In this document: one piece after another, positions 1 to 9,955 of the stretch | Position numbering within the stretch: position 1 is the stretch's first letter | Layout of the letters: the number at the start of each line of letters is the position of its first letter | Source of the DNA: a virus | Taxonomy: Duplodnaviria; Heunggongvirae; Uroviricota; Caudoviricetes | Reading direction: 5' to 3' (one strand) | IMG/VR virus record: IMGVR_UViG_2703718815_000001 | Span: 1-9,955 of that record | DNA length: 9,955 nucleotides | Made by a program: the position numbers and the translations under genes | The notes under the pieces: model-generated | The model's input: the letters and a program-made list of their open reading frames with translations, nothing else | Told to the model about the DNA's origin: nothing | Databases searched by the model: none

Positions 1-27
1 CTTTCGGGTCGCCGGTTTTCAAGACCG
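1..27 (-). other. 3'-portion fragment of a tRNA-Ser(UGA)-like gene (anticodon stem-loop plus start of long variable arm), cut by the window edge; probable att core duplicate
   Basis: Reverse complement of 1-27 is CGGTCTTGAAAACCGGCGACCCGAAAG: a CGGT/ACCG stem around the 7-nt loop CUUGAAA (U33, anticodon UGA, A37), then GCGACCCGAAAG as in class II seryl-tRNA variable arms. This matches my recollection of E. coli serT. Positions 28-60 are A-rich and cannot form the D-arm or acceptor 5' half, so only the 3' part is present. Confidence 0.5.
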
Positions 28-168
28 AAGAAAAATAAAGAAAAATCAGTATAATACGCAAAATAGCCGAAAAGTTAATCAGACTTAACACCAAGAAAAA
101 TCAAGATGTTAGGGAGTTATTCAGAGTTAATATACCAGGTCTTTTTGCCAGAAAATTTTCTGGATTGT
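28..168. repeat. AT-rich att arm region with direct repeats AAGAAAAAT(A/C)A (28-38, 38-48, 93-103) and a 16-bp palindrome CCAGAAAATTTTCTGG (148-163) abutting the int stop codon
   Basis: Repeats and palindrome read directly from the sequence. The position, between the tRNA-like core and the 3' end of int, is where arm-type Int/IHF/Xis binding sites lie in lambdoid attP/attL. Function is inferred. Confidence 0.35.
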
Positions 169-1188
169 CTACTTACTGACCACAAGCGGCAAATCCAGTG
201 TTGGCGTGATTTTGGTTTTACGATCGTAAATCAACACCTGATTTTCTGTTTTGTGTCCACTGAAAATTTGTTTGTCGCGACTGCTGCCTTCATAATCTGA
301 AATTCCTTTGGCTTTTATGTCATGGAAGTTGCACCCAAACGGAACACCGGCTTTTTGCTCGGCTGCACGTTTAGCCTGATTCCACCAGTTGTTCAGCGTT
401 TTAGCTATGACCTTCCCGCCTTTGGTTGTGTTGATCACATACTCGCATGTGCCGGAAGATACATTTCGGGCTAACTGGATCGCCGTACGTAATCGTGGAG
501 ACCATTCCTTGATTTGTTTGGTGCCGGTCTTGTTTTGCTCAATGTAAATCCCTTTGTCCATAATATCCTCCCATTTCAGCTCGAGCACATCACCGAGCCT
601 TGCCGCACAGAGATAGGATATCTCCATTGCAATACGTAACTGTGGAATTGCTTCCGCATATATCGCAGCATACTGTTCATCGGTGATGTAAACAGTACGG
701 GCTTTAAGCGTGAATTTTCTGACTCCTTTGCATGGATTATTTTTCACATACCCACGCTCATATCCCCATCCGTATACGCGACTCAGACTTGCCAGTTCAT
801 GGTTTGCCTGGGTCTTGCTCTCAAGACCCCGCTTATCCATGAAAATTCTTACCTGCTCAATTTTTACATTATCAGCAAGCATTTTCCCGAATACCGCCAG
901 TAATGCCCTTTGATGTTGCCGATAATCTTTTTGGGTTCGGGGGGCCAGTTCTGTAAATGCAGGGGAGTCCATAAACATGTGCCATAATTTAGCTACGGTC
1001 ATTATGTCGTGGAGTTTTGCCTTTTCCAGTTCATAATTTTGCCAGACTTTAGCCACGCTGGTTTCCCGCACTCTTCCGAGCTTTATCGTTCTTGTGCTTC
1101 CTTTGGGTTTCCATACGTAACTGTAACCATTCGATCTAACGCGCGGTGGCAGTACATTATCTTTTTTGTCTTTTCTTGGTCTTCCCAT
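169..1188 (-). CDS. int: Tyrosine-type phage integrase (lambda Int family)
   Basis: 339-aa ORF. The central segment TDEQYAAIYAEA...LRIAMEISYLCAARLGDVLELKWEDI...YIEQNKTGTK parallels lambda Int (LTADEYLKIYQAA...LRLAMELAVVTGQRVGDLCEMKWSDI...YVEQSKTGVK). The C-terminal region has His and Tyr in the expected catalytic arrangement (FHDIKAKGISDY...SGHKTENQVLIYDRK). It lies next to xis and the att core. Confidence 0.9.
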   Translation of the reverse strand: MGRPRKDKKDNVLPPRVRSNGYSYVWKPKGSTRTIKLGRVRETSVAKVWQNYELEKAKLHDIMTVAKLWHMFMDSPAFTELAPRTQKDYRQHQRALLAVFGKMLADNVKIEQVRIFMDKRGLESKTQANHELASLSRVYGWGYERGYVKNNPCKGVRKFTLKARTVYITDEQYAAIYAEAIPQLRIAMEISYLCAARLGDVLELKWEDIMDKGIYIEQNKTGTKQIKEWSPRLRTAIQLARNVSSGTCEYVINTTKGGKVIAKTLNNWWNQAKRAAEQKAGVPFGCNFHDIKAKGISDYEGSSRDKQIFSGHKTENQVLIYDRKTKITPTLDLPLVVSK

Positions 1189-1408
1189 TATTCAGTGCCT
1201 CAAAATCGGGTTCAGCAGAAACCAGTTCAGATACTTTTGACATTGCTGTTAGTCCACGTGGAATATCACAGCGTAGAACTATCGGCTCGTTTTTAGGCCC
1301 GATTAAAAATGGGATGCCGTGCAGTCTTAACTGGTGTTGCTGTCTTGTGTATCGCTTGTATTTCGTGATCTCTTGAATCTCTGCTGGCGATAGAGTTAAT
1401 TCATACAT
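1157..1408 (-). CDS. xis: Excisionase-like small DNA-binding protein (Xis/YdaQ-like)
   Basis: 83-aa basic ORF directly upstream of int, overlapping its start by 32 nt (classic xis-int arrangement). AAGG lies about 12 nt upstream of the ATG at 1408. Family assignment (DUF1233-type excisionase) is recollection, not a search result. Confidence 0.65.
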   Translation of the reverse strand: MYELTLSPAEIQEITKYKRYTRQQHQLRLHGIPFLIGPKNEPIVLRCDIPRGLTAMSKVSELVSAEPDFEALNNGKTKKRQKR

Positions 1409-1433
1409 GTGGTCACGTGCCTTACAGCATGAC

Positions 1434-1460
1434 CGCCGCCAATATAATTCGGAGGCGGCG
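1434..1460 (-). promoter_or_regulatory. Hairpin (7-bp GC stem CGCCGCC/GGCGGCG, 13-nt loop) between the exonuclease stop and the xis start
   Basis: Inverted repeat 1434-1440 / 1454-1460 read from the sequence. No U-tract follows on the minus strand, so it is not a canonical intrinsic terminator; it may be an RNA-processing or retroregulation element. Confidence 0.25.
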
Positions 1461-1474
1461 ATCAGGGTTGAACA

Positions 1475-3955
1475 TTAAAAATCAGCCTGACTCGGGATCA
1501 GTTTTTGTATCGTAGCTGTAACGTATTTTGCCTGGTGACGGGCGTCATCCAGTGCATTGTGGCGCACGCCTTCGAATGGAATAACGGTTCTGGCATCAAA
1601 GTCGATTGTTTTTCCCAGCTCAACGATTGTGCGTACATCGCGATCGTTGTGGTAGCTCCACGGGCAGGGGATGTCCAGACGTTCGTATGAGGTGCGCAAA
1701 ATTGCGTTATCGAAAGTTGCACCATTACCCCATACCTGAACGAATTTTTCATCTGAGTATTCGTTGATGAACTCCCGAAACTGCGAAAGGGCATCCTTCA
1801 GTTTTACCTGGTCTGTTAAAATGGCAGCTCTGGCTTCACTGGACTGCTTCAGCCACCATTCGATGGTTCCACCGTCAGGAACAGCCCCTGTATTCATTGC
1901 GTCAGTCAGACTGATAACGATATAAAATACTGGCCCGATTTCCCCTGTTTGTGGGTCGAAGAAAACCGCACCAATAACCACGATGGGCGCATTGGTGTTG
2001 GTTCCCATTGTTTCAAGGTCGATCATCAGGTGGTACCACACTCTGCTGGTGGATGTGATAACGTGATGACCGTTCACCGCAATTAAGGGATCTGCCGTCT
2101 CGCCAGTTTCATTATCGCTGGCGTGGTCCTGAGCGCTGCCAGCATTCTCCTTGTGTGGATGTTCAGCGCCTTCCATTTCCTCCGGATCATTTTCCTGAAC
2201 TTCAACCTGATTCTCTTCATCGAATGTTTCCTGATATGTTGCGTCGCCCATCACCGCACCACAATCAGGGCAGTTGCCGCCACCGATCTGACCGCAGGCG
2301 GTGCAGACTTTTTCCGCTTCCTGTTGCGCTACCGGTTCGGATTGTTTCGTTTCTGGCTCGTTTTGTAACGCATTTTGGCTGTTTTGTTCCGCTTTCTGGT
2401 TGTTCTGTTCCGTTTCTTGCTGGTTCTGGTTCACAGAATCGCGGGTTTCAATCCCCTTCACCCATTTCGGATCATTCGGGTCGCTAATCCCTGCAACAAA
2501 TTCTCCGCGAGAGGCAGCAAGCAGTTCATTAGCGTCAGGCTGGCTGATATTGGCTGCCTGCATAATTTTGTTTACTTCGTCAGCGGTAACTTTTACCGGC
2601 TCTGGTTGTGCGGTCGTGTCAGATGCACCAGTATTTTGTTGTGAGCCTGAGTATGTACCGTTTTTGCGGGCAAAATATTCTTCTTTCGTGATTTCAGTAG
2701 CCCCTGCAGCCAGCGCCTTATTCAGACCAGAAAGTTTGTTTGCACGACCATATTTTTCGCCATCCTTATCGGTGAAAAGGAAGTAGAACGGCCCCTCACG
2801 CTCTACAGATGGTTCAGTTTCCAGCGTGTTTTCATTTTTTTGGGTATCAGATACTTCAGTTTCCACTGCATCAGTTTGTACTGCTGACGGCTGGAGAATA
2901 TCAGCAGTGTTCTGGTCTGTTTCTTCATCCTCAAACACGCCCTTTGTCGCCAGGTATTCAGTGATGTATTTGTTCAGTGCTACGGGATCTTTGTGAATGT
3001 CGATCGGACGCTCACGGACAAGGCCAAAAATAGTCTGACGGTCGTAGCGAACGGCATCGGGTTGTTTGCGCATAGATGCGGAAATGCGCTTCCAGTCTTC
3101 GCGATCTTTGTCGATAACTTCATTTTTTGCCCAGCGATGGATGCTGCCGTCAATGTTTCCGGCATTAATATCGCCAGGCCACAGAGCGTAGGCCAGTTCT
3201 TCATCCAGCGTTTTCCATGTCTGCTTGTATTCGCGATGAATGGCGGCAGTGGTGGGGTTGATTTTTCCTGCTGAGTTTTCAGTGTGCTGCCGGTTGACTC
3301 TGGCGCGGGCAAGATCAACAACAGACGTGTATTTCCCGGTTTCTTTGCGTTCGGTTTCGCGACGTTTTTTCCAGGTGCGTAATTCTGTCTGGATCTCAGG
3401 CCATTTTGCACCCGGCTTACATTTATGTTTAACCCACCCGATGGCGAGCAGCTTTAGTTCTGAATACATGACGTTAACTTCAGGCATTTTCATCAATGCC
3501 TCAACGATATGCCCGTCGAATGTTGCCATGTCCTCCTGCAACAATTCCTGTGCACTAATCACCATATCAACGGTGATGTTTTCACATGTACCGAACTTAA
3601 CCAGGACCGCGTTCTGTACTTCAAGGGACAGCTTGTCAAAATTGACGTTCATCGGATCGGATTCTGGTTCGACCGGGACAAAGGAAGCGCCTTCCTCATC
3701 CCAGCGGTTTTCCAGCATATATTCGGTATCCCAGGAGTCGATGGCAGGGCGGGGCATGCCGGGTTTATCCTCGCAGACAAGAAATTTATAAGCGCAGTCC
3801 TGAGCAGCCGGATATTGCTCCAGGAATTGCCAGGTAAATTTGGCACGGGCGCGACGTTCGTCGCCGGCTTCAATGGCAGTGGCTACAGCGACTGCACCTT
3901 CTTTCTTTATTGCCTGTTCGTCCGGAATGGCGGCGCAAATAAAGACTTTACTCAT
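1475..3955 (-). CDS. Large multidomain phage exonuclease (often annotated exodeoxyribonuclease VIII-like): N-terminal domain of unknown function, Q/N/E-rich linker, CxxC...CxxC zinc ribbon, C-terminal DEDDh (DnaQ-like) 3'-5' exonuclease domain
   Basis: 826-aa ORF with GAGG 9 nt upstream of the ATG at 3955. The C-terminal ~183 aa carry DEDDh motifs: MIDLET (Exo I), [12 protein letters not shown] (Exo II), [13 protein letters not shown] (Exo III). [16 protein letters not shown] is a 4-Cys ribbon (DNA about 2255-2305). A low-complexity [18 protein letters not shown] linker is encoded by tandem DNA repeats at about 2330-2420. The segment [29 protein letters not shown] resembles my memory of the RecE middle region; the N-terminus resembles what Qin ydfE encodes (recollection). 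Confidence 0.8.
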
Positions 3956-4035
3956 TTTGTTTTAACCTCATTACAGATTTAAGGGTGAACAAATCCCTGC
4001 CATTGCTGGCATATAAAAATGAAACCGGATATTAA

Positions 4036-4239
4036 TTACGGCGCTGTTTTAAGTCCTGCCGGGATTTCGTTATTATCCATGTGAATAACTTTATCGACCG
4101 GATAGCAGTTACCGGGAATTTTTTGTTCTGCTGCGGCAGCCATGCATTCTTTCATTGAACCGTAAATGTCAATAACCATGTCAACAGGCTCGCCAGTATT
4201 AAGGAAAACAGTCAGAGTGAGGGCAATAGCAGTATTCAT
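4036..4239 (-). CDS. Small membrane protein, YdfD-like (Qin prophage lysis-associated protein family), 67 aa
   Basis: Start chosen at the internal ATG 4239 (AAGGA 8 nt upstream), which overlaps the dicB-like stop as ATGA (translational coupling). N-terminal hydrophobic helix MNTAIALTLTVFL. Size and position match ydfD downstream of dicB in Qin. The track ORF 4036..4293 begins upstream, inside dicB. Confidence 0.6.
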   Translation of the reverse strand: MNTAIALTLTVFLNTGEPVDMVIDIYGSMKECMAAAAEQKIPGNCYPVDKVIHMDNNEIPAGLKTAP

Positions 4240-4424
4240 TGCCAGTATCCTTTTTGCATCGGGCGTAAACGTGCCAGCATTGAAAGAATGCATATTTTAT
4301 TTAATAGCTCCCGTTCGTGTTTTCTCTTATTAATGGCATCTTCAGTAAATGCAGGGTTACTGATTTTGACACCAATTTCAAAACAACCTTCAGACGTATT
4401 AACGTTTGGTAATAACGTTTCCAT
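4236..4424 (-). CDS. dicB: Cell-division inhibitor DicB homolog, 62 aa
   Basis: From the internal ATG at 4424 (GAGGA 7 nt upstream) the product is METLLPNVNTSEGCFEIGVKISNPAFTEDAINKRKHERELLNKICILSMLARLRPMQKGYWQ. This matches the length and, closely, the sequence of Qin DicB as I recall it. It follows a DicF-like element, as in Qin. Confidence 0.75.
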   Translation of the reverse strand: METLLPNVNTSEGCFEIGVKISNPAFTEDAINKRKHERELLNKICILSMLARLRPMQKGYWQ

Positions 4425-4607
4425 TATCGCGTCCTCAACAATGAATTTTGTGATACGGTGCCTGGTGCCTCCAGGTGACGTTAACCAGTTAACAATTAAC
4501 GCCGGATACAGAGAACCCACCCATAAGAACCAATACGGAAGTCAACTGGCCTTTTTAACTGTTCCGCGTGCGCTGAGCCGCATTCACCGCATCACAAAAT
4601 TCACTTT

Positions 4608-4670
4608 AAAAAGGGCGGGTATCACAAGGGAAAACAAAAAACGGATACCCGCCAAAAGGTAATCAACATG
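4608..4670 (-). ncRNA. dicF: DicF-family small RNA (divergent variant) with intrinsic terminator
   Basis: Minus strand reads ...UGUUGAUUACCUUUUGGCGGGUAUCCGUUUUUUGUUUUCCCUUGUGAUACCCGCCCUUUUUAAAGUGAAUUUUGUGAUG. It has a 10-bp stem (4614-4623 / 4644-4653) followed by a CUUUUU tract. It shares UUUGGCGG...UAUC.GUUUU...CCGCCCUUUUU with K-12 DicF (recollected 53-nt sequence), but the 5' dozen nucleotides differ. It sits between the ydfC-like and dicB-like genes as in Qin. The 5' end is estimated by alignment, not mapped. Confidence 0.55.
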
Positions 4671-4790
4671 GGTTGTTGCAGCGGGGTTGTCACTTAAGCG
4701 TATGGTCAACCTGACAACCCGGTGTCCTCAACGGGGAAGGAATAACCCCGCCATACTTACCGCCGCGCCATTTCGCGGAGTGCCACAACC

Positions 4791-4857
4791 GGAAGCGCAC
4801 AGACGAAGATGTCAGTGGTACACAACAAAGGGAGGAATGACTTCGCTGTGCGCTTCC
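4791..4857 (-). promoter_or_regulatory. Long near-perfect RNA hairpin (12 bp + 1-nt bulge + 5 bp stem, about 32-nt loop) in the untranslated leader upstream of the DicF-like RNA; candidate RNase III processing stem
   Basis: GGAAGCGCACAG-A-CGAAG (4791-4808) pairs with CTTCG-CTGTGCGCTTCC (4841-4857). It lies about 120 nt upstream of the inferred DicF-like 5' end. In K-12 the DicF precursor is cut by RNase III upstream of the mature RNA (established knowledge); the assignment here is inference. Confidence 0.3.
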
Positions 4858-4985
4858 GTGTTATGCCCTGACTTTTCAGGGATATATCCTTTCAGTAAAC
4901 TGCCAGTGCCGGATGCTCACCCGTGTCCGGCGCACGCACTCCACCTCACCCGTGGAGAACTCCTTAATTAACAACCCTCAGGAGG

Positions 4986-5216
4986 GTGATTTTGAACACA
5001 ATAAAAACCACTATTAATAATGATTTATCCCATGATGGAATAAATGCCGAATTAAGAGCCATTAAGCTCGCGATAGCTTTGATGGCAACAAGACTTCCGC
5101 CAGAACTTCGCTCAGATTGTGTAACAGATGCTTTAAAAAGCACAGGTGATAAACATGCCACTGAATTAGCAAACCTGATTCAACAATTCATAGATGAGGC
5201 GAATTCTCAAAACTGA
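4986..5216 (+). CDS. Hypothetical small protein (74-76 aa), AT-rich, opposite orientation to the surrounding operon; no family recognised
   Basis: Perfect AGGAGG at 4980-4985. Start is GTG 4986 (0-nt spacing) or, more plausibly, TTG 4992 (6-nt spacing); there is no in-frame ATG near the start. First codon positions are purine-rich and third positions A/T-rich, consistent with coding in an AT-rich acquired gene. Predicted helical and soluble. No obvious sigma70 promoter seen upstream. Confidence 0.4.
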   Translation: MILNTIKTTINNDLSHDGINAELRAIKLAIALMATRLPPELRSDCVTDALKSTGDKHATELANLIQQFIDEANSQN

Positions 5217-5367
5217 TTGTTATTTCTTTCTGAAAACTTTTACTATCCAGGCATTTTTTTGCTAACCAAATGCGGGCCTCTGTGCCTGCATTGGGCTCCA
5301 GTTCATGTAAGCGTTTTGCATCTTCCAGAAGCAAGGCAATAACGTGTTTAAGTTCTGTTTCATTCAT
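5188..5367 (-). CDS. Hypothetical small protein (59 aa; 63 aa if started at 5379); no family recognised
   Basis: ATG at 5367 with GAGG 6 nt upstream, 15 nt after the ydfC-like stop and co-oriented with the operon. The 3' end overlaps the plus-strand ORF by 29 bp (5188-5216). Product: MNETELKHVIALLLEDAKRLHELEPNAGTEARIWLAKKCLDSKSFQKEITISFENSPHL. Confidence 0.45.
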   Translation of the reverse strand: MNETELKHVIALLLEDAKRLHELEPNAGTEARIWLAKKCLDSKSFQKEITISFENSPHL

Positions 5368-5382
5368 CGTCAACCTCATCGG

Positions 5383-5598
5383 TCAGTAGTTTGCAATCAC
5401 TCGCGAAACGTTTAATGCCGCTCTTTTTGCCAGAGTGGTAATATCTTGCTCCGCTGATGCCAGTTCTTTAGAGAGGCGCTCTTTGTAGTCAGCAGCCTGC
5501 TTCATGTCATTAATGGCGCGTATCTTCCCGCACATCCATTCGTAAATTTCATCATCGGTATAGTCTGGCGCGATGATGACGGGTTCTCGTTTCTGCAT
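5383..5598 (-). CDS. YdfC-like small protein (71 aa) of the dicB-type operon
   Basis: GAGGAA 7 nt upstream of the ATG at 5598. Size (Qin YdfC is 72 aa) and position (third gene of the operon) match; sequence similarity is from memory only. Confidence 0.6.
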   Translation of the reverse strand: MQKREPVIIAPDYTDDEIYEWMCGKIRAINDMKQAADYKERLSKELASAEQDITTLAKRAALNVSRVIANY

Positions 5599-5628
5599 AC
5601 TGAATTCCTCGCGGTGCCGCTTCGCTTA

Positions 5629-5757
5629 TCAGCCGTTAGATTTTGCCGAACTGGAAAGCGCCTGTTTAAACTCACTGAAGCTGAGAGCTTCTTCGCCTTC
5701 GGCAAGGCCTTCGAAGTATTCTTCGTAAGCCTTTTCCATGATTGTGTCGAAATCCAT
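5629..5757 (-). CDS. YdfB/YdaG-like small acidic protein (42 aa); not in the supplied ORF track (below its length cutoff)
   Basis: Manual translation of the reverse complement: MDFDTIMEKAYEEYFEGLAEGEEALSFSEFKQALSSSAKSNG, with AGGTGAG just upstream of the ATG at 5757. It starts 1 nt after the ydfA-like stop. Size matches Qin YdfB (42 aa). Confidence 0.6.
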   Translation of the reverse strand: MDFDTIMEKAYEEYFEGLAEGEEALSFSEFKQALSSSAKSNG

Positions 5758-5758
5758 A

Positions 5759-5914
5759 TCACTCACCTGAGTTTCTTTCCAGCCAGCGACGAGCGCCAGT
5801 TTCGGTTTTAAACGTTTTGCTTTTGGTATACGTCATCGCGGTGAATGTGCCGTCCTGGTTGGGGAACACGCCACATACCAGAGATTCGCTGTTGCCAAGA
5901 TCGATAGTATCCAT
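5759..5914 (-). CDS. YdfA/YdaF-like small protein (51 aa), first gene of the leftward early operon
   Basis: Internal ATG at 5914 with GAGG 6 nt upstream gives MDTIDLGNSESLVCGVFPNQDGTFTAMTYTKSKTFKTETGARRWLERNSGE (51 aa, the size of Qin YdfA and Rac YdaF). An alternative upstream ATG at 5992 (77 aa) also has a GAGG and cannot be excluded. Confidence 0.6.
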   Translation of the reverse strand: MDTIDLGNSESLVCGVFPNQDGTFTAMTYTKSKTFKTETGARRWLERNSGE

Positions 5915-6092
5915 GTTGACCTCATTTCCCCTTAACGCCGGGGTAGCGGAACAAAAACCTGCTGCATAGTTAAAGTTGAACCCTGCCGTCATGTTCTTAC
6001 GCCTCGGGCTGGCTACTTAACCCCTGACCACTGCCTGGTAACTCGAAGTATTGCCCTGCATTCTGTGGGGCGGGGTGGGTTGGTATGAGAAA

Positions 6093-6134
6093 ACTATAGG
6101 TAATGCCTAATTGCTTGTCAATAGGCTATGCCTA
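6093..6134 (-). promoter_or_regulatory. Leftward early promoter (pL-like) with overlapping operators (OL)
   Basis: On the minus strand: -35 TTGACA (plus 6116-6121), 17-nt spacer, -10 TATAGT (plus 6093-6098). Operator palindromes TAGGT-AAT-GCCTA (6097-6109) and TAGGC-TAT-GCCTA (6122-6134) overlap the promoter. Confidence 0.5.
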
Positions 6135-6231
6135 ATGTTTTTTGCGCACAACCTAATAGGCGATGGTATGTGGAAGAGGTAATGGGAGCTAAATAACGGG
6201 ATCTAGGAGCTTCCCGTCGGACCATATAAGT

Positions 6232-6708
6232 TTAAGTTCCCGTTTTGGTGATGTTCTGGCTTTTCCGTTCTGATTCTTGATTTTTCAGATAGTTACTTAC
6301 CTTCATTTCCATTGCAGTAATGTAGGCGCGAACGTCATGATCAACCCAACCAGACTCCGCAGCATTTCCAGATAAGAGGAAAGCTACAATTGCTCTTTTT
6401 TCATCAGAAGCGGCTTGATAAAGGCTGTTTATGTCTAAAAGTTCTCTTTTTGAATCTGAGCAGGAAGGGGTTGGTATGGGGTATTCGTTAAGCCCCCAAT
6501 GCTCTGGACCAACCACATCAGAAAAGAAACGCCATAGTTCTGGAAGTTTATCTTTACTTATCGAACCTTTCTTAATCCAGTCATGGATTGATGGTGGTTG
6601 GACTTTGAAATGGCGTGCGATCTCCGCCTTTGATTTGACGGCTCCTGATGCAATTTTTTTATTAATGGCCTGCTCTATCGCTCGGCCTAAGTCTTTACCA
6701 CTAAGCAT
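6232..6708 (-). CDS. racR: Prophage repressor, cI-type HTH protein (RacR-like), 158 aa
   Basis: N-terminal HTH region (KSKAEIARHFKVQPPSIHDWIKKGS). It sits between two operator/promoter regions and is divergent from the Cro-like ydaS. Length is identical to Rac RacR (158 aa). Symbol is given on synteny and size; the sequence is not recalled residue by residue. Confidence 0.75.
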   Translation of the reverse strand: MLSGKDLGRAIEQAINKKIASGAVKSKAEIARHFKVQPPSIHDWIKKGSISKDKLPELWRFFSDVVGPEHWGLNEYPIPTPSCSDSKRELLDINSLYQAASDEKRAIVAFLLSGNAAESGWVDHDVRAYITAMEMKVSNYLKNQESERKSQNITKTGT

Positions 6709-6736
6709 TGCTTAATAGTCTCCTATGTGCATTGCA

Positions 6737-6805
6737 TTAGGCAATCCCTACCTATTGGTTGTTAGGCATAGCCTATTGACAATGATGTTAGGCGTCGCCT
6801 AATAT
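6737..6805 (+). promoter_or_regulatory. Rightward early promoter (pR-like) with three operators (OR)
   Basis: -35 TTGACA at 6776-6781, 18-nt spacer, -10 TAATAT at 6800-6805. Operators TAGGC-AAT-CCCTA (6737-6749), TAGGC-ATA-GCCTA (6763-6775) and TAGGC-GTC-GCCTA (6789-6801) have centres 26 bp apart. Confidence 0.55.
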
Positions 6806-6832
6806 CATTGTGTGTTTTTTGGAGTTCATTCG

Positions 6833-7156
6833 ATGAAAAAAGAGAACTATTCATTCAAACGAGCTTGTGCTGTTGTCGGTGGGCAATCAGCAATGGCCAG
6901 ACTTTTAGGGGTATCGCCTCCAAGCGTAAATCAATGGATCAAAGGTGTACGTCGGTTGCCTGCCGAGAGATGTCCAGCGATTGAACGAGCAACAAAAGGT
7001 GGAGTCCTGTGTGAAGAACTTCGTCCTGATGTTGACTGGTCATACTTACGACGTTCGTCATGTTATTCGCAGAATATGTCGATGAAGCAACCAAATGACA
7101 AAAACGATCATACCCGAAGTATCAAGAGGCAAATGATTCATGAAAATCAAGCATGA
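6833..7156 (+). CDS. ydaS: Cro-like HTH protein YdaS
   Basis: ATG at 6833 with GGAG 8 nt upstream. The track's GTG start at 6812 would sit inside the -10 region. MKKENYSFKRACAVVGGQSAMARLLGVSPPSVNQWIKGVRRLPAERCPAIERA closely matches Rac YdaS as I recall it. Confidence 0.75.
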   Translation: MKKENYSFKRACAVVGGQSAMARLLGVSPPSVNQWIKGVRRLPAERCPAIERATKGGVLCEELRPDVDWSYLRRSSCYSQNMSMKQPNDKNDHTRSIKRQMIHENQA

Positions 7157-7565
7157 ACACATCCGCATGGCGATGAATGCCTGGGCGCATCCGGACGGTG
7201 AAAAAGTTCCGGCAGCTGAAATAACCCGGGCTTATTTTGAGCTGGGTATGACGTTCCCGGAGCTATATGACGACAGCCATCCGGAAGCCCTGGCTCGCAA
7301 TACTCAGAAAATATTCCGCTGGGTGGAGAAAGACACCCCTGATGCTGTTGAAAAAATTCAGGCGTTGTTACCAGCGATCGAAAAAGCAATGCCACCTCTG
7401 CTGGTGGCCCGAATGCGCAGCCACAGTTCAGCCTATTTTCGGGAGCTGGTGGAGACGCGGGAACGACTGGTGAGAGACGCTGATGATTTTGTCGCAGTGG
7501 CGATCGCTGGTTTCAACCAGATGAATCGTGGTGGTCCGGCGGGAAATGCCGTGGTGATGCACTAA
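7140..7565 (+). CDS. ydaT: YdaT-family protein (141 aa), reported as toxic on overexpression and as a CII-like regulator
   Basis: Overlaps the ydaS 3' end; AAGAGG 10 nt upstream of the ATG. Size (Rac YdaT is 140 aa) and position (after ydaS, before the replication genes) match. Confidence 0.7.
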   Translation: MKIKHEHIRMAMNAWAHPDGEKVPAAEITRAYFELGMTFPELYDDSHPEALARNTQKIFRWVEKDTPDAVEKIQALLPAIEKAMPPLLVARMRSHSSAYFRELVETRERLVRDADDFVAVAIAGFNQMNRGGPAGNAVVMH

Positions 7566-7588
7566 AAGCACGGTGTTCGGAGTTTTTT

Positions 7589-8536
7589 ATGAGCAGCAAG
7601 CTTCATGGTCTTGTCTGGGAAGGGTGTGCCTTCACCGGCATGATCTTATCCAGGGTGGCAGTAATGGCTCGCCTTGCAGATTACAGCAATGACGAAGGTG
7701 TGTCATGGCCTGCAGTGGAGACCATTCGTCGTCAGATTGGGGCAAAGAGTGAATCAACGGTTAAAGCTGCGATAGCAGAACTGGAAAAGAACGGCTGGCT
7801 GACGAAGGAAGAACGTAAGGTCGGTGGGCGTAATGAAAGCAATATCTACCGTCTTAATGTGGAAAAACTCGAAGCAGCAGCAGCGGCGGCGCGTGAGGCA
7901 TATAAACCGAAAAGAAAAATTAACCCGGTAAAAAATGACCCGTCAAATATTGACCCCTCAACGGTTGACCCCTCAAATTTTGATGGATCAACCGTTGATA
8001 AAAAACATCCGGTTAGGGGGGCGATGGTTGGCCCCGATCCGTCAGTATTAAAACCTGATCCGTCAGATAAAAGATCTTTTCGTCCGGACGCTTCGCAACC
8101 GGACCCGCAGACGGCTGAACAGGATTTTTTAACCCGACACCCTGACGCGGTTGTGTTCAGTGCGAAAAAACGCCAGTGGGGCAGCCAGGAAGATTTGGCG
8201 TGTGCGCAGTGGATCTGGGGACGAATCGTGAGTCTTTACGAGCAGGCTGCCAGCGATGATGGCGAAATCATGCGACCGAAAGAACCAAACTGGACTGCAT
8301 GGGCCAATGATGTGCGCACAATGCGGATGCTGGATGGCAGAACTCACAGACAAATTTGCGAAATGTTTGGTCGGGCACAGCGGGATCCATTCTGGGTAAA
8401 AAACGTCATGAGCCCGTCAAAGCTTCGCGAAAAATGGGATGAGCTGGTTATTCGTCTGGGGCGTTCGCCTGTACAGCGTTGCGTGAATCATATTTCCGAG
8501 CCGGACGCCGAAATTCCGCCGGGATTCAGGGGGTAA
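7589..8536 (+). CDS. Replication initiation protein (lambda O-like / YdaU-like) with N-terminal HTH DNA-binding domain
   Basis: 315-aa ORF with GGAG 5 nt upstream. N-terminal winged-helix-like region. The central linker (NPVKNDPSNIDPSTVDPSNFDGSTVD) is encoded by iteron-like DNA repeats, as the lambda ori lies inside O. Immediately followed by the DnaC-like loader. Confidence 0.75.
   Translation: MSSKLHGLVWEGCAFTGMILSRVAVMARLADYSNDEGVSWPAVETIRRQIGAKSESTVKAAIAELEKNGWLTKEERKVGGRNESNIYRLNVEKLEAAAAAAREAYKPKRKINPVKNDPSNIDPSTVDPSNFDGSTVDKKHPVRGAMVGPDPSVLKPDPSDKRSFRPDASQPDPQTAEQDFLTRHPDAVVFSAKKRQWGSQEDLACAQWIWGRIVSLYEQAASDDGEIMRPKEPNWTAWANDVRTMRMLDGRTHRQICEMFGRAQRDPFWVKNVMSPSKLREKWDELVIRLGRSPVQRCVNHISEPDAEIPPGFRG
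7936..7991. repeat. Putative replication-origin iterons: four 11-bp units TGACCCGTCAA / TGACCCCTCAA / TGACCCCTCAA / TGATGGATCAA at an exact 15-bp period, followed by an A-rich tract
   Basis: Units start at 7936, 7951, 7966 and 7981, each with an internal TGA...TCA inverted symmetry. They are located inside the O-like gene linker. Origin function is inferred by analogy to ori-lambda. Confidence 0.5.
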
Positions 8537-8542
8537 CGAAGC

Positions 8543-9289
8543 ATGAAAAATATTGCGACAGGCGGTGTTCTTGAACGCATCCGTAAGCTGGCTCCGCAGC
8601 ATGTAACCGCGCCATACCGAACAGTGGACGAGTGGCGCGAGTGGCAACTTGCAGAAGGCCAGAAGCGTTGCGAGGAGATCAACCGCCAGAATCGTCAGTT
8701 GCGGGTGGAAAAAATTCTGAATCGCTCCGGCATCCAGCCGTTGCACCGCAAGTGCTCGTTTGCGAATTACCAGGTGCAGAATGACGGCCAGCGATACGCG
8801 TTGAGCCAGGCGAAATCCATCGCCGATGAACTGATGACCGGATGCACAAATTTCGCATTCAGCGGAAAACCTGGTACCGGAAAAAACCATCTGGCGGCGG
8901 CTATCGGGAATCGCCTGCTGAAAGATGGCCAGACAGTGATTGTGGTTACCGTGGCTGATGTCATGAGTGCTCTACACGCCAGCTATGACGACGGGCAATC
9001 AGGCGAAAAATTTTTGCGGGAACTGTGCGAAGTGGATCTGCTGGTTCTTGATGAAATTGGTATTCAGCGCGAGACGAAAAACGAGCAGGTGGTACTGCAC
9101 CAGATTGTTGATCGCCGGACAGCGTCGATGCGCAGCGTGGGGATGCTGACAAACCTGAACTATGAGGCCATGAAAACATTGCTCGGCGAGCGGATTATGG
9201 ATCGCATGACCATGAACGGCGGGCGCTGGGTGAATTTTAACTGGGAGAGCTGGCGCCCGAATGTTGGTCAGCCAGGTATTGAGAAGTAA
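8543..9289 (+). CDS. DnaC-like helicase loader / IstB-type AAA+ ATPase (YdaV-like replication protein)
   Basis: 248-aa ORF with Walker [16 protein letters not shown] and Walker [10 protein letters not shown]. It follows the O-like initiator; length matches Rac YdaV (248 aa). Confidence 0.9.
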
Positions 9290-9311
9290 TTTTTACCGGG
9301 AGGAAATTTTA

Positions 9312-9955
9312 ATGGAGACCGTTTTTGACGCACTGAAAGCGATGGGAAAAGCCACGTCGGTAGAACTGGCTGCGCGACTTGATATCAGTCGTGAAGAGGT
9401 ACTGAACGAGCTGTGGGAACTGAAAAAGGCTGGTTTCGTTGATAAAAGCGTATACACCTGGCGTGTAGCTGGTGAAGGTGAATCCGGGGTAGCCGAAGAG
9501 CAGCCAGCACAATCTGAAGTACAGGATGTGCTAACCAGGGAGGTCGAACGAAAAGTTACCGCTGACATGATGATTGAGTTTATCGGTCAGGAGGGAGCTA
9601 AAACGTGTGAGGAACTGGCGGGTAAGTTTGGTGTCAGCACTCGCAAGGTTGCTTCCACGCTGGCGGTAGTAACCGCAACGGGGCGGCTGGCACGCGTAAA
9701 CCAGAACGGTAAATTTCGCTACTGCATGCCGGGCGGTAATTTACCAGCAGAGCCGAAAGCTGCATTGGTAGCGGAAACTGATGGTAAAGCCTTTCCTCAG
9801 CCAGCAAGTGTTGCGTTACCAGTACAGGAAGCTGCAACACAGGAAGATATTAAAACAGAAACTGTGGCGGACATTGTGCAGCCGCTTGAGAAGCGAGTGG
9901 ATAATCTGGTTCTGCCATCGCTGCGACAGGCAAACCGCGAACTGCGTCGGGCGAA
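9312..9955 (+). CDS. Hypothetical phage protein, 3'-truncated by the window end; two tandem winged-helix-like repeats at the N-terminus
   Basis: ATG at 9312 with GGGAGG 8 nt upstream; open frame to the window end (not in the track because it is incomplete). Internal duplication: [33 protein letters not shown] versus [39 protein letters not shown]. Confidence 0.6.

Follow-up and report, generated by a model that had tools for sequence, protein, structure and literature searches.

Introduction

Recombineering uses RecET as a basic tool, although the large N-terminal body of RecE is poorly understood in function. In the Qin prophage of Escherichia coli K-12, the DicA-repressed dicB promoter transcribes ydfD and ydfE as one transcript (PMC11430063). 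EcD, a standalone E. coli homologue of T4 DexA that constitutes the HREX defence, digests T4/5-hydroxymethylcytosine (5hmC) DNA, spares unmodified double-stranded DNA and protects against T4 (Kang et al., 2025; PMC12153337). Two roles have been described for DexA, and they include scavenging of host DNA (PMC12153337). Lambdoid phages without a Rec module are rich in Chi sites and use host RecBCD (Zheng, Casjens, Davidson, Amundsen and Smith, 2025; PMC12315714). This "no Rec module, high Chi" class typically has at least eight Chi sites in the active orientation and at most six in the inactive one. The same study mentions DnaQ-type nuclease genes "very near int", which were not counted as Rec genes, and "RecE-2" proteins, distant relatives of RecE that lack a nuclease domain (PMC12315714). 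The gene described here encodes a putative exonuclease of 826 amino acids (aa). It lies in a stretch of 9,955 nucleotides (nt) of caudoviral DNA (IMG/VR record IMGVR_UViG_2703718815_000001, positions 1 to 9,955), referred to below as the window.

A RecE-like body carrying a different nuclease

Comparison of the encoded protein with known families shows a domain-swapped relative of RecE, in which a predicted DEDDh 3'-5' nuclease stands in place of the PD-(D/E)xK 5'-3' nuclease. By blastp, aa 279-625 align with residues 294-591 of K-12 RecE at 38.6% identity (E 7e-61), and the zinc ribbon and the acidic stretch that follows it are nearly identical in the two proteins. The central, non-catalytic part of RecE is represented by this alignment, by a conserved motif starting LAAxRGE[FY] and by the ribbon. 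Homology to RecE does not extend beyond residue 591 of that protein, short of its PD-(D/E)xK domain, in keeping with the proposal of the initial annotation that the nuclease chemistry differs from that of RecE. The RecE equivalog model of NCBIfam (NF007259) scored 270.4 bits against a cut-off of 1269, with aa 219-626 placed on model positions 246-603 of 877. In the Pfam scan the protein matched neither the RecE-type nuclease (PF12684, approximately residues 600-866 of RecE) nor the RecE-type N-terminal domain Exonuc_VIII (PF06630), and in phmmer comparisons a near-identical representative (P0121) matched the DEDDh module (module E) and not the RecE nuclease. By score, nuclease, N-terminus and the lack of recT, the protein is not a RecE, whereas it does qualify as a member of PF16473 and as a YdfE-type protein. 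A recent recombination junction with recE was considered and ruled out, because the coding DNA of the common segment (aa 476-624) is only 76.6% identical to K-12 recE.

The N-terminal part has another origin. Residues 1-256 are 86.7% identical to the product of the K-12 Qin pseudogene ydfE. A protein 98% identical to the query (P0001) carries precomputed labels for PF27430 (YdfE_N) and PF27432 (YdfE_C); a direct scan of the query gave no match to either. The N-terminal ~340 aa, first regarded as a single domain of unknown function, are indeed present as a region. They consist, however, of two confidently folded domains (aa 1-210 and 240-345), corresponding to Pfam YdfE_N and YdfE_C. The search for structural neighbors of the first of these, domain A, found no informative relative. 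The fragment of K-12 exoD, a pseudogene in DLP12, has no tblastn match to the 826-aa protein.

The remaining layout is largely that described in the initial annotation. A single 826-aa gene of modular build is encoded by the open reading frame (ORF) exactly as proposed, and the protein matches PHROG 2082, "exonuclease", from end to end. The linker rich in Q, N and E was likewise recovered: 27 of the 50 residues at aa 501-550 are Q, N or E, and the AlphaFold model is disordered there. The four-Cys zinc ribbon is real (C551, C554, C562 and C565), but its spacing is CxxC-x7-CxxC and not the ten residues first given. Apart from this spacing, the earlier reading overlooked the RecE-like central region with its ribbon, and the fact that the N-terminus corresponds to K-12 ydfE in intact form. 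It also expected proteins of this length to be called exodeoxyribonuclease VIII. That name is now confined to older annotations, while current RefSeq names are "exonuclease", "3'-5' exonuclease" and "3'-5' exoribonuclease domain-containing protein".

The DEDDh domain

The C-terminal domain was correctly recognized at the outset as a DnaQ-like DEDDh nuclease. Pfam family PF16473 (Rv2179c-like 3'-5' exoribonuclease) matches aa 642-814 with an E value of 6.5e-68 and 228.3 bits against a cut-off of 27, and the match spans profile positions 2-175 of 177. A second, weak match is to PF00929 (RNase_T). All five catalytic residues are present (D646, E648, D749, H799 and D804). They correspond to D7, E9, D119, H186 and D191 of DexA and show no variation when the domain is aligned with T4 DexA, one standalone homologue from a phage and two relatives that are fused. 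The catalytic core of the DexA family, to which EcD/HREX belongs, is therefore complete. T4 DexA (8kel) is the sole relative by sequence in the PDB, where Rv2179c was not retrieved even at E <= 1; the oligoribonucleases REXO2 and Orn gave weak profile and fold matches to the domain. The DEDDh domain was modeled poorly, as few alignment rows contain it, and it was assessed by sequence instead. It is the most diverged part of the gene (synonymous divergence, dS, 0.65) and exists as several alleles. Retrieval of EcD by its primer was also tried; the only exact 20-mer match in viral contigs lies in one without a DEDDh ORF and was rejected as a chance match.

The annealase and the type of nuclease

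The initial annotation placed the gene in the slot that recE-recT occupies in Rac and saw no annealase partner beside it, and both points stand. The gene lies between dicB-ydfD and xis-int, and a sister gene (P0129) is found in the exact Rac position. Searches of the window with RecT (tblastn) gave no match, and the neighboring ORFs have no annealase family match in Pfam, NCBIfam or PHROGs. The annotation of the 43-kb prophage described below contains no annealase, Gam or SSB. The possibility that an annealase is hidden in a different reading frame was also considered, and the alternative-frame ORFs of the gene region matched no such family. The ORFs of the early-left region gave no annealase, Gam/Abc2-like or SSB match, so that a Rec module in the sense of PMC12315714 is lacking.

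The same arrangement recurs in 86 related loci, some of them from species genomes and others from viral contigs; these loci are closely related to each other and are not independent observations. The scan of species-genome contigs contributed six loci only, all close relatives, and brought in no diversity across genera. The order dicB-ydfD-exonuclease-xis-int is essentially invariant among the 86. Four types of xis follow the gene, with median start offsets 59-79 nt past the stop codon, and several integrase types come after these. The larger clusters of same-strand upstream ORFs match only PHROGs of unknown function or Kil. The absence of an annealase is a family-wide rule and not a local accident.

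Members with other combinations of modules extend this comparison. P0129, which joins a RecE-type N-terminus to a DEDDh domain (L093), has the Rac-like order sieB-kilR-ydaE-[gene]-xis-int without recT. P0139, of the same composition, is found on two separate contigs (L094, L095) in the order dicB-DUF1482-[gene]-int, again without recT. Two variants that join a YdfE-type N-terminus to a PD-(D/E)xK nuclease have a RecT-like gene directly after them (phrog_561, E 3.5e-101 and 1.5e-97), and K-12 recE is followed by recT. These arrangements are consistent with the presence of an annealase tracking the type of nuclease: xis/int comes next after a DEDDh domain, and recT comes next after a PD-(D/E)xK domain.

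A modular protein family

A search with aa 1-631 found only 245 relatives at E <= 0.001 among 1.84 billion cluster representatives. Segments of the 826-aa protein and of K-12 RecE were used to dissect 52 long members by phmmer. The N-termini are of two types, YdfE-type and RecE-type (PF06630), and are followed by the common modules B and C and sometimes by a zinc-ribbon module; module B is detected in YdfE-type and RecE-type members alike. The C-termini are of three kinds, namely the DEDDh domain, the RecE-type PD-(D/E)xK domain and a tail of 310-390 aa. Of ten tails scanned, nine gave no Pfam match and the tenth a match to Ead_Ea22 that stayed below threshold. All four combinations of N-terminal type and nuclease type occur. 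The LAAxRGE[FY] motif is kept in almost all members regardless of the C-terminus. Only 8 of 48 representatives have the zinc ribbon, and its cysteines are retained wherever it occurs.

Members without a recognizable nuclease (for example P0131, L098:5001-7337) sit between gam-like and Mu Gam-like end-protection genes, and these nuclease-less proteins are probably the "RecE-2" proteins of Zheng et al. (PMC12315714). A standalone DEDDh gene of 190 aa occurs in Escherichia phage PhiR47_1 (L100:2995-3567), where it is annotated as exodeoxyribonuclease VIII. A relative 57% identical over aa 218-825 lies in an enterobacterial-type prophage context on a contig (L009, JAGZPX010000007.1) that was binned as a metagenome-assembled genome of Veillonella parvula, a placing that is probably a binning error.

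Prevalence and selection

The suggestion that the gene may be common but poorly characterized is confirmed as far as its distribution is concerned. Among 5426 complete E. coli genomes, 4072 (~75%) contain DNA matching the DEDDh domain, at 7164 places. Whole-gene DNA matches 4800 of the 5426, 3528 of them at a coverage of at least 80%, and recT together with the recE nuclease, searched with K-12 DNA, is found in 1750 (32%). The gene is also present in the sequenced record of Escherichia phage Evi. The ORF is intact in 82 of the 86 related loci. The ratio of non-synonymous to synonymous substitution rates (dN/dS) is 0.19 in domain A, 0.13 in domain B, 0.08 in domain C and 0.09 in the LAAxRGE[FY] motif; overall, it ranges from 0.08 to 0.22 in the folded domains and the motif and from 0.5 to 0.9 in the linkers. 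The gene is therefore functional and common, given the intact ORFs, the purifying selection and the genome counts.

The host prophage and its Chi sites

Part of a ~43-kb prophage of E. coli ETEC1746 (L006, NZ_CP122727.1 2987000-3036800) matches the window at 99.99% identity, in an alignment with one gap of 1 nt. This is an Stx2e-converting prophage situated between a tRNA-Ser gene and yccA, and it carries stx2e, a P27-family terminase, a contractile tail and RusA. Its copy of the exonuclease gene has a 1-nt indel and is annotated as frameshifted. The immunity and replication region of the prophage is Rac-like (racR, ydaS/ydaT-like, ydaU/ydaV-like) and the left operon is Qin-like.

The 43.4-kb prophage has 13 Chi sites on the equivalent of the lambda top strand and 5 on the other strand, against shuffle expectations of 1.2 and 0.4, and falls within the "no Rec module, high Chi" class of PMC12315714. 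All three Chi sites of the window are on the plus strand. In 78 distinct loci carrying the DEDDh domain (769 kb), 198 Chi sites have the lambda-top orientation and 9 the opposite one. No Chi site occurs in the recET-bearing segment of K-12 Rac. One of the sites in the window, which is conserved, lies inside the exonuclease gene, where it overlaps codons S635-T636-S637. Eighty related genes hold 78 Chi sites, every one of them in the lambda-top orientation. From its location, the intragenic Chi could mark or promote a module junction.

Mode of action and alternative explanations

Taken jointly, and with the specific biological role set aside, the molecular identity proposed for the protein and an annealase-independent mode of action appear somewhat probable from the domain content and gene order. 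Expression is probably early after induction and not in the lysogen, because the gene has no promoter-like site of its own and Qin ydfE lies on a DicA-repressed transcript. The exonuclease would be made after induction from the repressor-controlled early-left (dicB-ydfD) transcript. The scaffold would bring the nuclease to the target of RecE, which may be DNA ends or a host partner, and the nuclease would strip nucleotides from DNA 3' ends in a metal-dependent reaction. Digestion in the 3'-5' direction takes away the 3' tail on which an annealase or RecA depends, and for this reason the protein would not serve as the nuclease partner in a two-component annealing recombinase. Recombination-dependent replication would be left to host RecBCD, RecA and Chi. 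As to the role, the most likely one, put forward tentatively and by analogy, would be to destroy or disable linear DNA foreign to the phage, such as that of competing phages. The initial annotation proposed recombination, host DNA degradation or anti-defense as possible functions; the nearest experimental precedent, EcD, points to defense against other phages and not to anti-defense (PMC12153337).

Several observations weigh against this proposal. Prophage defense genes are not usually repressed in the lysogen, as this gene appears to be. PADLOC gave no match for the protein or its small neighbors, with a library that predates the EcD work. Kang et al. (2025) connect particular residues with the behavior of EcD (PMC12153337). 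The equivalent of DexA D90, which is tetramer-forming and is Ala78 in EcD, is still an Asp here (D721) and is invariant in the five aligned sequences. DexA W152, which is needed for T4 DNA and 5hmC recognition, aligns with H769, and relatives have W, C or Y at this position; this part of the alignment is anchored by the motif N-x-R-D-[VI]-R-T, and the loop of DexA D169, an acidic residue also assigned to 5hmC recognition, is not reliably alignable. The scaffold in common with RecE speaks for a connection of some kind with recombination or the processing of ends. Rv2179c, on which the Pfam family was founded, is an RNase, and an RNA substrate is possible. The coupling of annealase to nuclease type rests on a small converse sample of three PD-(D/E)xK cases and on 86 DEDDh loci that are mutually related.

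RecBCD requires ends that are blunt or close to blunt, and 3' exonucleases of the host are able to produce these. The protein might accordingly be an end-processing helper of RecBCD-Chi recombination, a scaffold-delivered 3'-5' nuclease trimming phage 3' overhangs to blunt ends for RecBCD loading, which would make it a third kind of lambdoid recombination accessory. Its scaffold in common with a recombination nuclease is in favor of such a helper, as are the Chi-rich, strongly biased prophage and the 78 related early regions, with one Chi inside the gene itself. The published RecBCD-dependent lambdoid class would fit as well (PMC12315714), and so would the standalone DEDDh gene of PhiR47_1, which occupies the same place beside yfdP-yfdQ-yfbR, genes named for LLS-type phages. 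However, 3'-5' single-strand exonucleases usually inhibit recombination (PMC12315714), and this explanation is regarded as rather unlikely. Broader still is the idea that the RecE/YdfE scaffold is a general delivery platform that docks, by its conserved domains and the LAAxRGE[FY] motif, on DNA ends or on a host factor (RecBCD, SSB or the replisome, for example) and carries swappable effectors. Some phages would equip it with a 5'-3' nuclease and RecT, others with just a 3'-5' nuclease, and others again with Gam-like partners in place of any nuclease. The DEDDh form would represent a hitherto unrecognized, annealase-free strategy using host RecBCD and Chi that is more widespread in E. coli than RecET. 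So general a scheme is quite unlikely.

The nuclease domain by itself suggests other substrates. DexA, the closest characterized relative, has host DNA scavenging among its roles (PMC12153337), and breakdown of host DNA during lytic growth, with fragments reduced to mononucleotides that feed phage DNA synthesis in the classical manner of T4 DexA, would agree with the early expression suggested by the promoter scan and by Qin. A simple scavenger would have no need of a 630-residue scaffold maintained under purifying selection, and standalone versions of 190 aa exist. Degradation of the host chromosome is not known from temperate lambdoid phages, and scavenging is considered improbable. An RNA exonuclease like Rv2179c, trimming the 3' ends of host or phage transcripts or small RNAs (sRNAs), is suggested by the name of the Pfam family, by the RefSeq name "3'-5' exoribonuclease" and by the weak matches to REXO2 and Orn. 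It is given similarly little probability, as the only solved sequence relative is the DNase DexA, Rv2179c itself was not recovered by the sequence search, the domain is fused to the body of a nuclease of DNA recombination and EcD of E. coli acts on DNA (PMC12153337). Finally, the gene might be decaying and at present without function, a mosaic that illegitimate recombination produced in cryptic prophages. K-12 has only fragments (ydfE cut by IS2, and the exoD pseudogene) and the ETEC1746 copy is flagged as frameshifted. Against such decay stand the ORF intact in nearly all related loci, the far stronger constraint on folded domains than on linkers, the invariant catalytic residues, and the presence of the gene in the Evi record and, at high coverage, in thousands of complete genomes; a functionless remnant is very improbable.

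Other features of the locus

The features of the window are collected in Table 1. The consensus promoter scan that found the site at the head of the early-left operon found no such site directly upstream of the exonuclease gene.

Table 1. Positions of the exonuclease gene, its parts and its neighbors in the window. pLDDT, predicted local distance difference test.
Feature	Position	Strand	Basis or remark
Exonuclease gene, chimeric YdfE/RecE scaffold	1475..3955	-	Complete 826-aa ORF, stop codon included, ATG start
Folded domain A, aa 1-210, YdfE_N type	3326..3955	-	pLDDT >90; 86.7% identity to K-12 ydfE pseudogene
Helical domain B, aa 240-345, common to RecE-type proteins	2921..3238	-	pLDDT >90
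Small folded domain C, aa 388-435	2651..2794	-	pLDDT >90; in most family members
Conserved motif starting LAAxRGE[FY], aa 475-500	2456..2533	-	Near-universal in family
Q/N/E-rich disordered linker, aa 501-546	2318..2455	-	Composition; pLDDT <40
Four-Cys zinc ribbon CTAC-x7-CPDC, aa 551-565	2261..2305	-	Nearly identical to K-12 RecE
Acidic disordered linker, aa 571-636	2048..2245	-	Common with RecE up to RecE residue 591; pLDDT <50
DEDDh 3'-5' exonuclease domain (predicted), aa 642-814	1514..2032	-	Pfam PF16473
Chi site GCTGGTGG inside exonuclease gene	2045..2052	+	Linker/DEDDh boundary; lambda-top-strand orientation
ydfD-like gene (DUF1482), upstream neighbor	4036..4239	-	Pfam, annotation; in 77/86 loci
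dicB, cell-division inhibitor, same transcription unit	4236..4424	-	Pfam, NCBIfam; in 79/86 loci
Excisionase (DUF4224)	1157..1408	-	Pfam, PHROG; starts 67 nt past exonuclease stop codon
Tyrosine integrase at prophage edge	169..1188	-	Pfam, PHROG; annotated beside yccA
Sigma-70-like promoter TTGACA-17-TATAGT, head of early-left operon	6093..6121	-	Consensus scan, 11/12 positions

Upstream of dicB, at ~4600-4660 on the minus strand, the flanks of the position that dicF has in K-12 are almost identical to Qin. The body of the sRNA is replaced there by another sequence, which ends in a hairpin, GGCGGGTATC...GATACCCGCC, followed by TTTTT. Rfam made no DicF call at this position and reported nothing at gathering score in the window. 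The replacement may represent an sRNA allele that has diverged and whose seed differs. Relaxed thresholds brought up one Rfam match only, to the sRNA STnc100 at 4392-4615 on the minus strand, where it overlaps the leader and start of dicB; at 34 bits (E 1.7e-05) it stays below the gathering score of 47. At 5188-5379, also on the minus strand, lies a member of a small ORF family starting MRLTM(E/N)..., 63 to 216 aa long, which is found upstream of dicB in most related loci and matches only PHROGs of unknown function (1363, 2151 and 30817).

Significance and comparison with known systems

The domains of the protein are already named in databases, and two papers of 2025 (PMC12315714, PMC12153337) touch on the class without characterizing the fusion. 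Neither the swap of nucleases on the scaffold nor its coupling to the loss of the annealase was found described in the literature consulted. The body of RecE is likely to have a function of its own, because it recurs here joined to a nuclease of the opposite polarity, with no annealase beside it, and the natural swap of nucleases makes this function testable. The gene represents a very common and uncharacterized prophage function, carried in about three quarters of complete E. coli genomes and in Shiga-toxin prophages among others. An action on the DNA of competing phages, like that of the related EcD, would be relevant to phage therapy and to the way in which prophages compete. As a helper of RecBCD-Chi recombination, the protein would fill a gap in the newly described lambdoid class without Rec modules.

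Among the described systems, the DnaQ-type and RecE-2 proteins of lambdoid phages agree with this gene in position and family, whereas the scaffold-nuclease fusion and the coupling to the annealase are not part of their description (PMC12315714). T4 DexA (exonuclease A; PDB 8kel, 8ken) belongs to the same family, PF16473, and is 30% identical to the domain, with the five catalytic residues aligned. DexA (227 aa) and EcD are standalone proteins, whereas the domain described here is fused to a 630-aa scaffold. EcD is moreover a different protein, as its primer-derived termini are MIDTET... and ...TIPETY. In Qin, the gene order dicB-ydfD-ydfE matches that of the window, but K-12 ydfE is truncated by IS2 and the gene of the window is intact. 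RecE of K-12 Rac has a similar length and modular layout and occupies the same early-left slot just upstream of xis/int. It has, however, a PD-(D/E)xK (5'-3') nuclease, a PF06630 N-terminus and recT as its neighbor, where the gene of the window has a DEDDh domain, a YdfE_N N-terminus and no recT.

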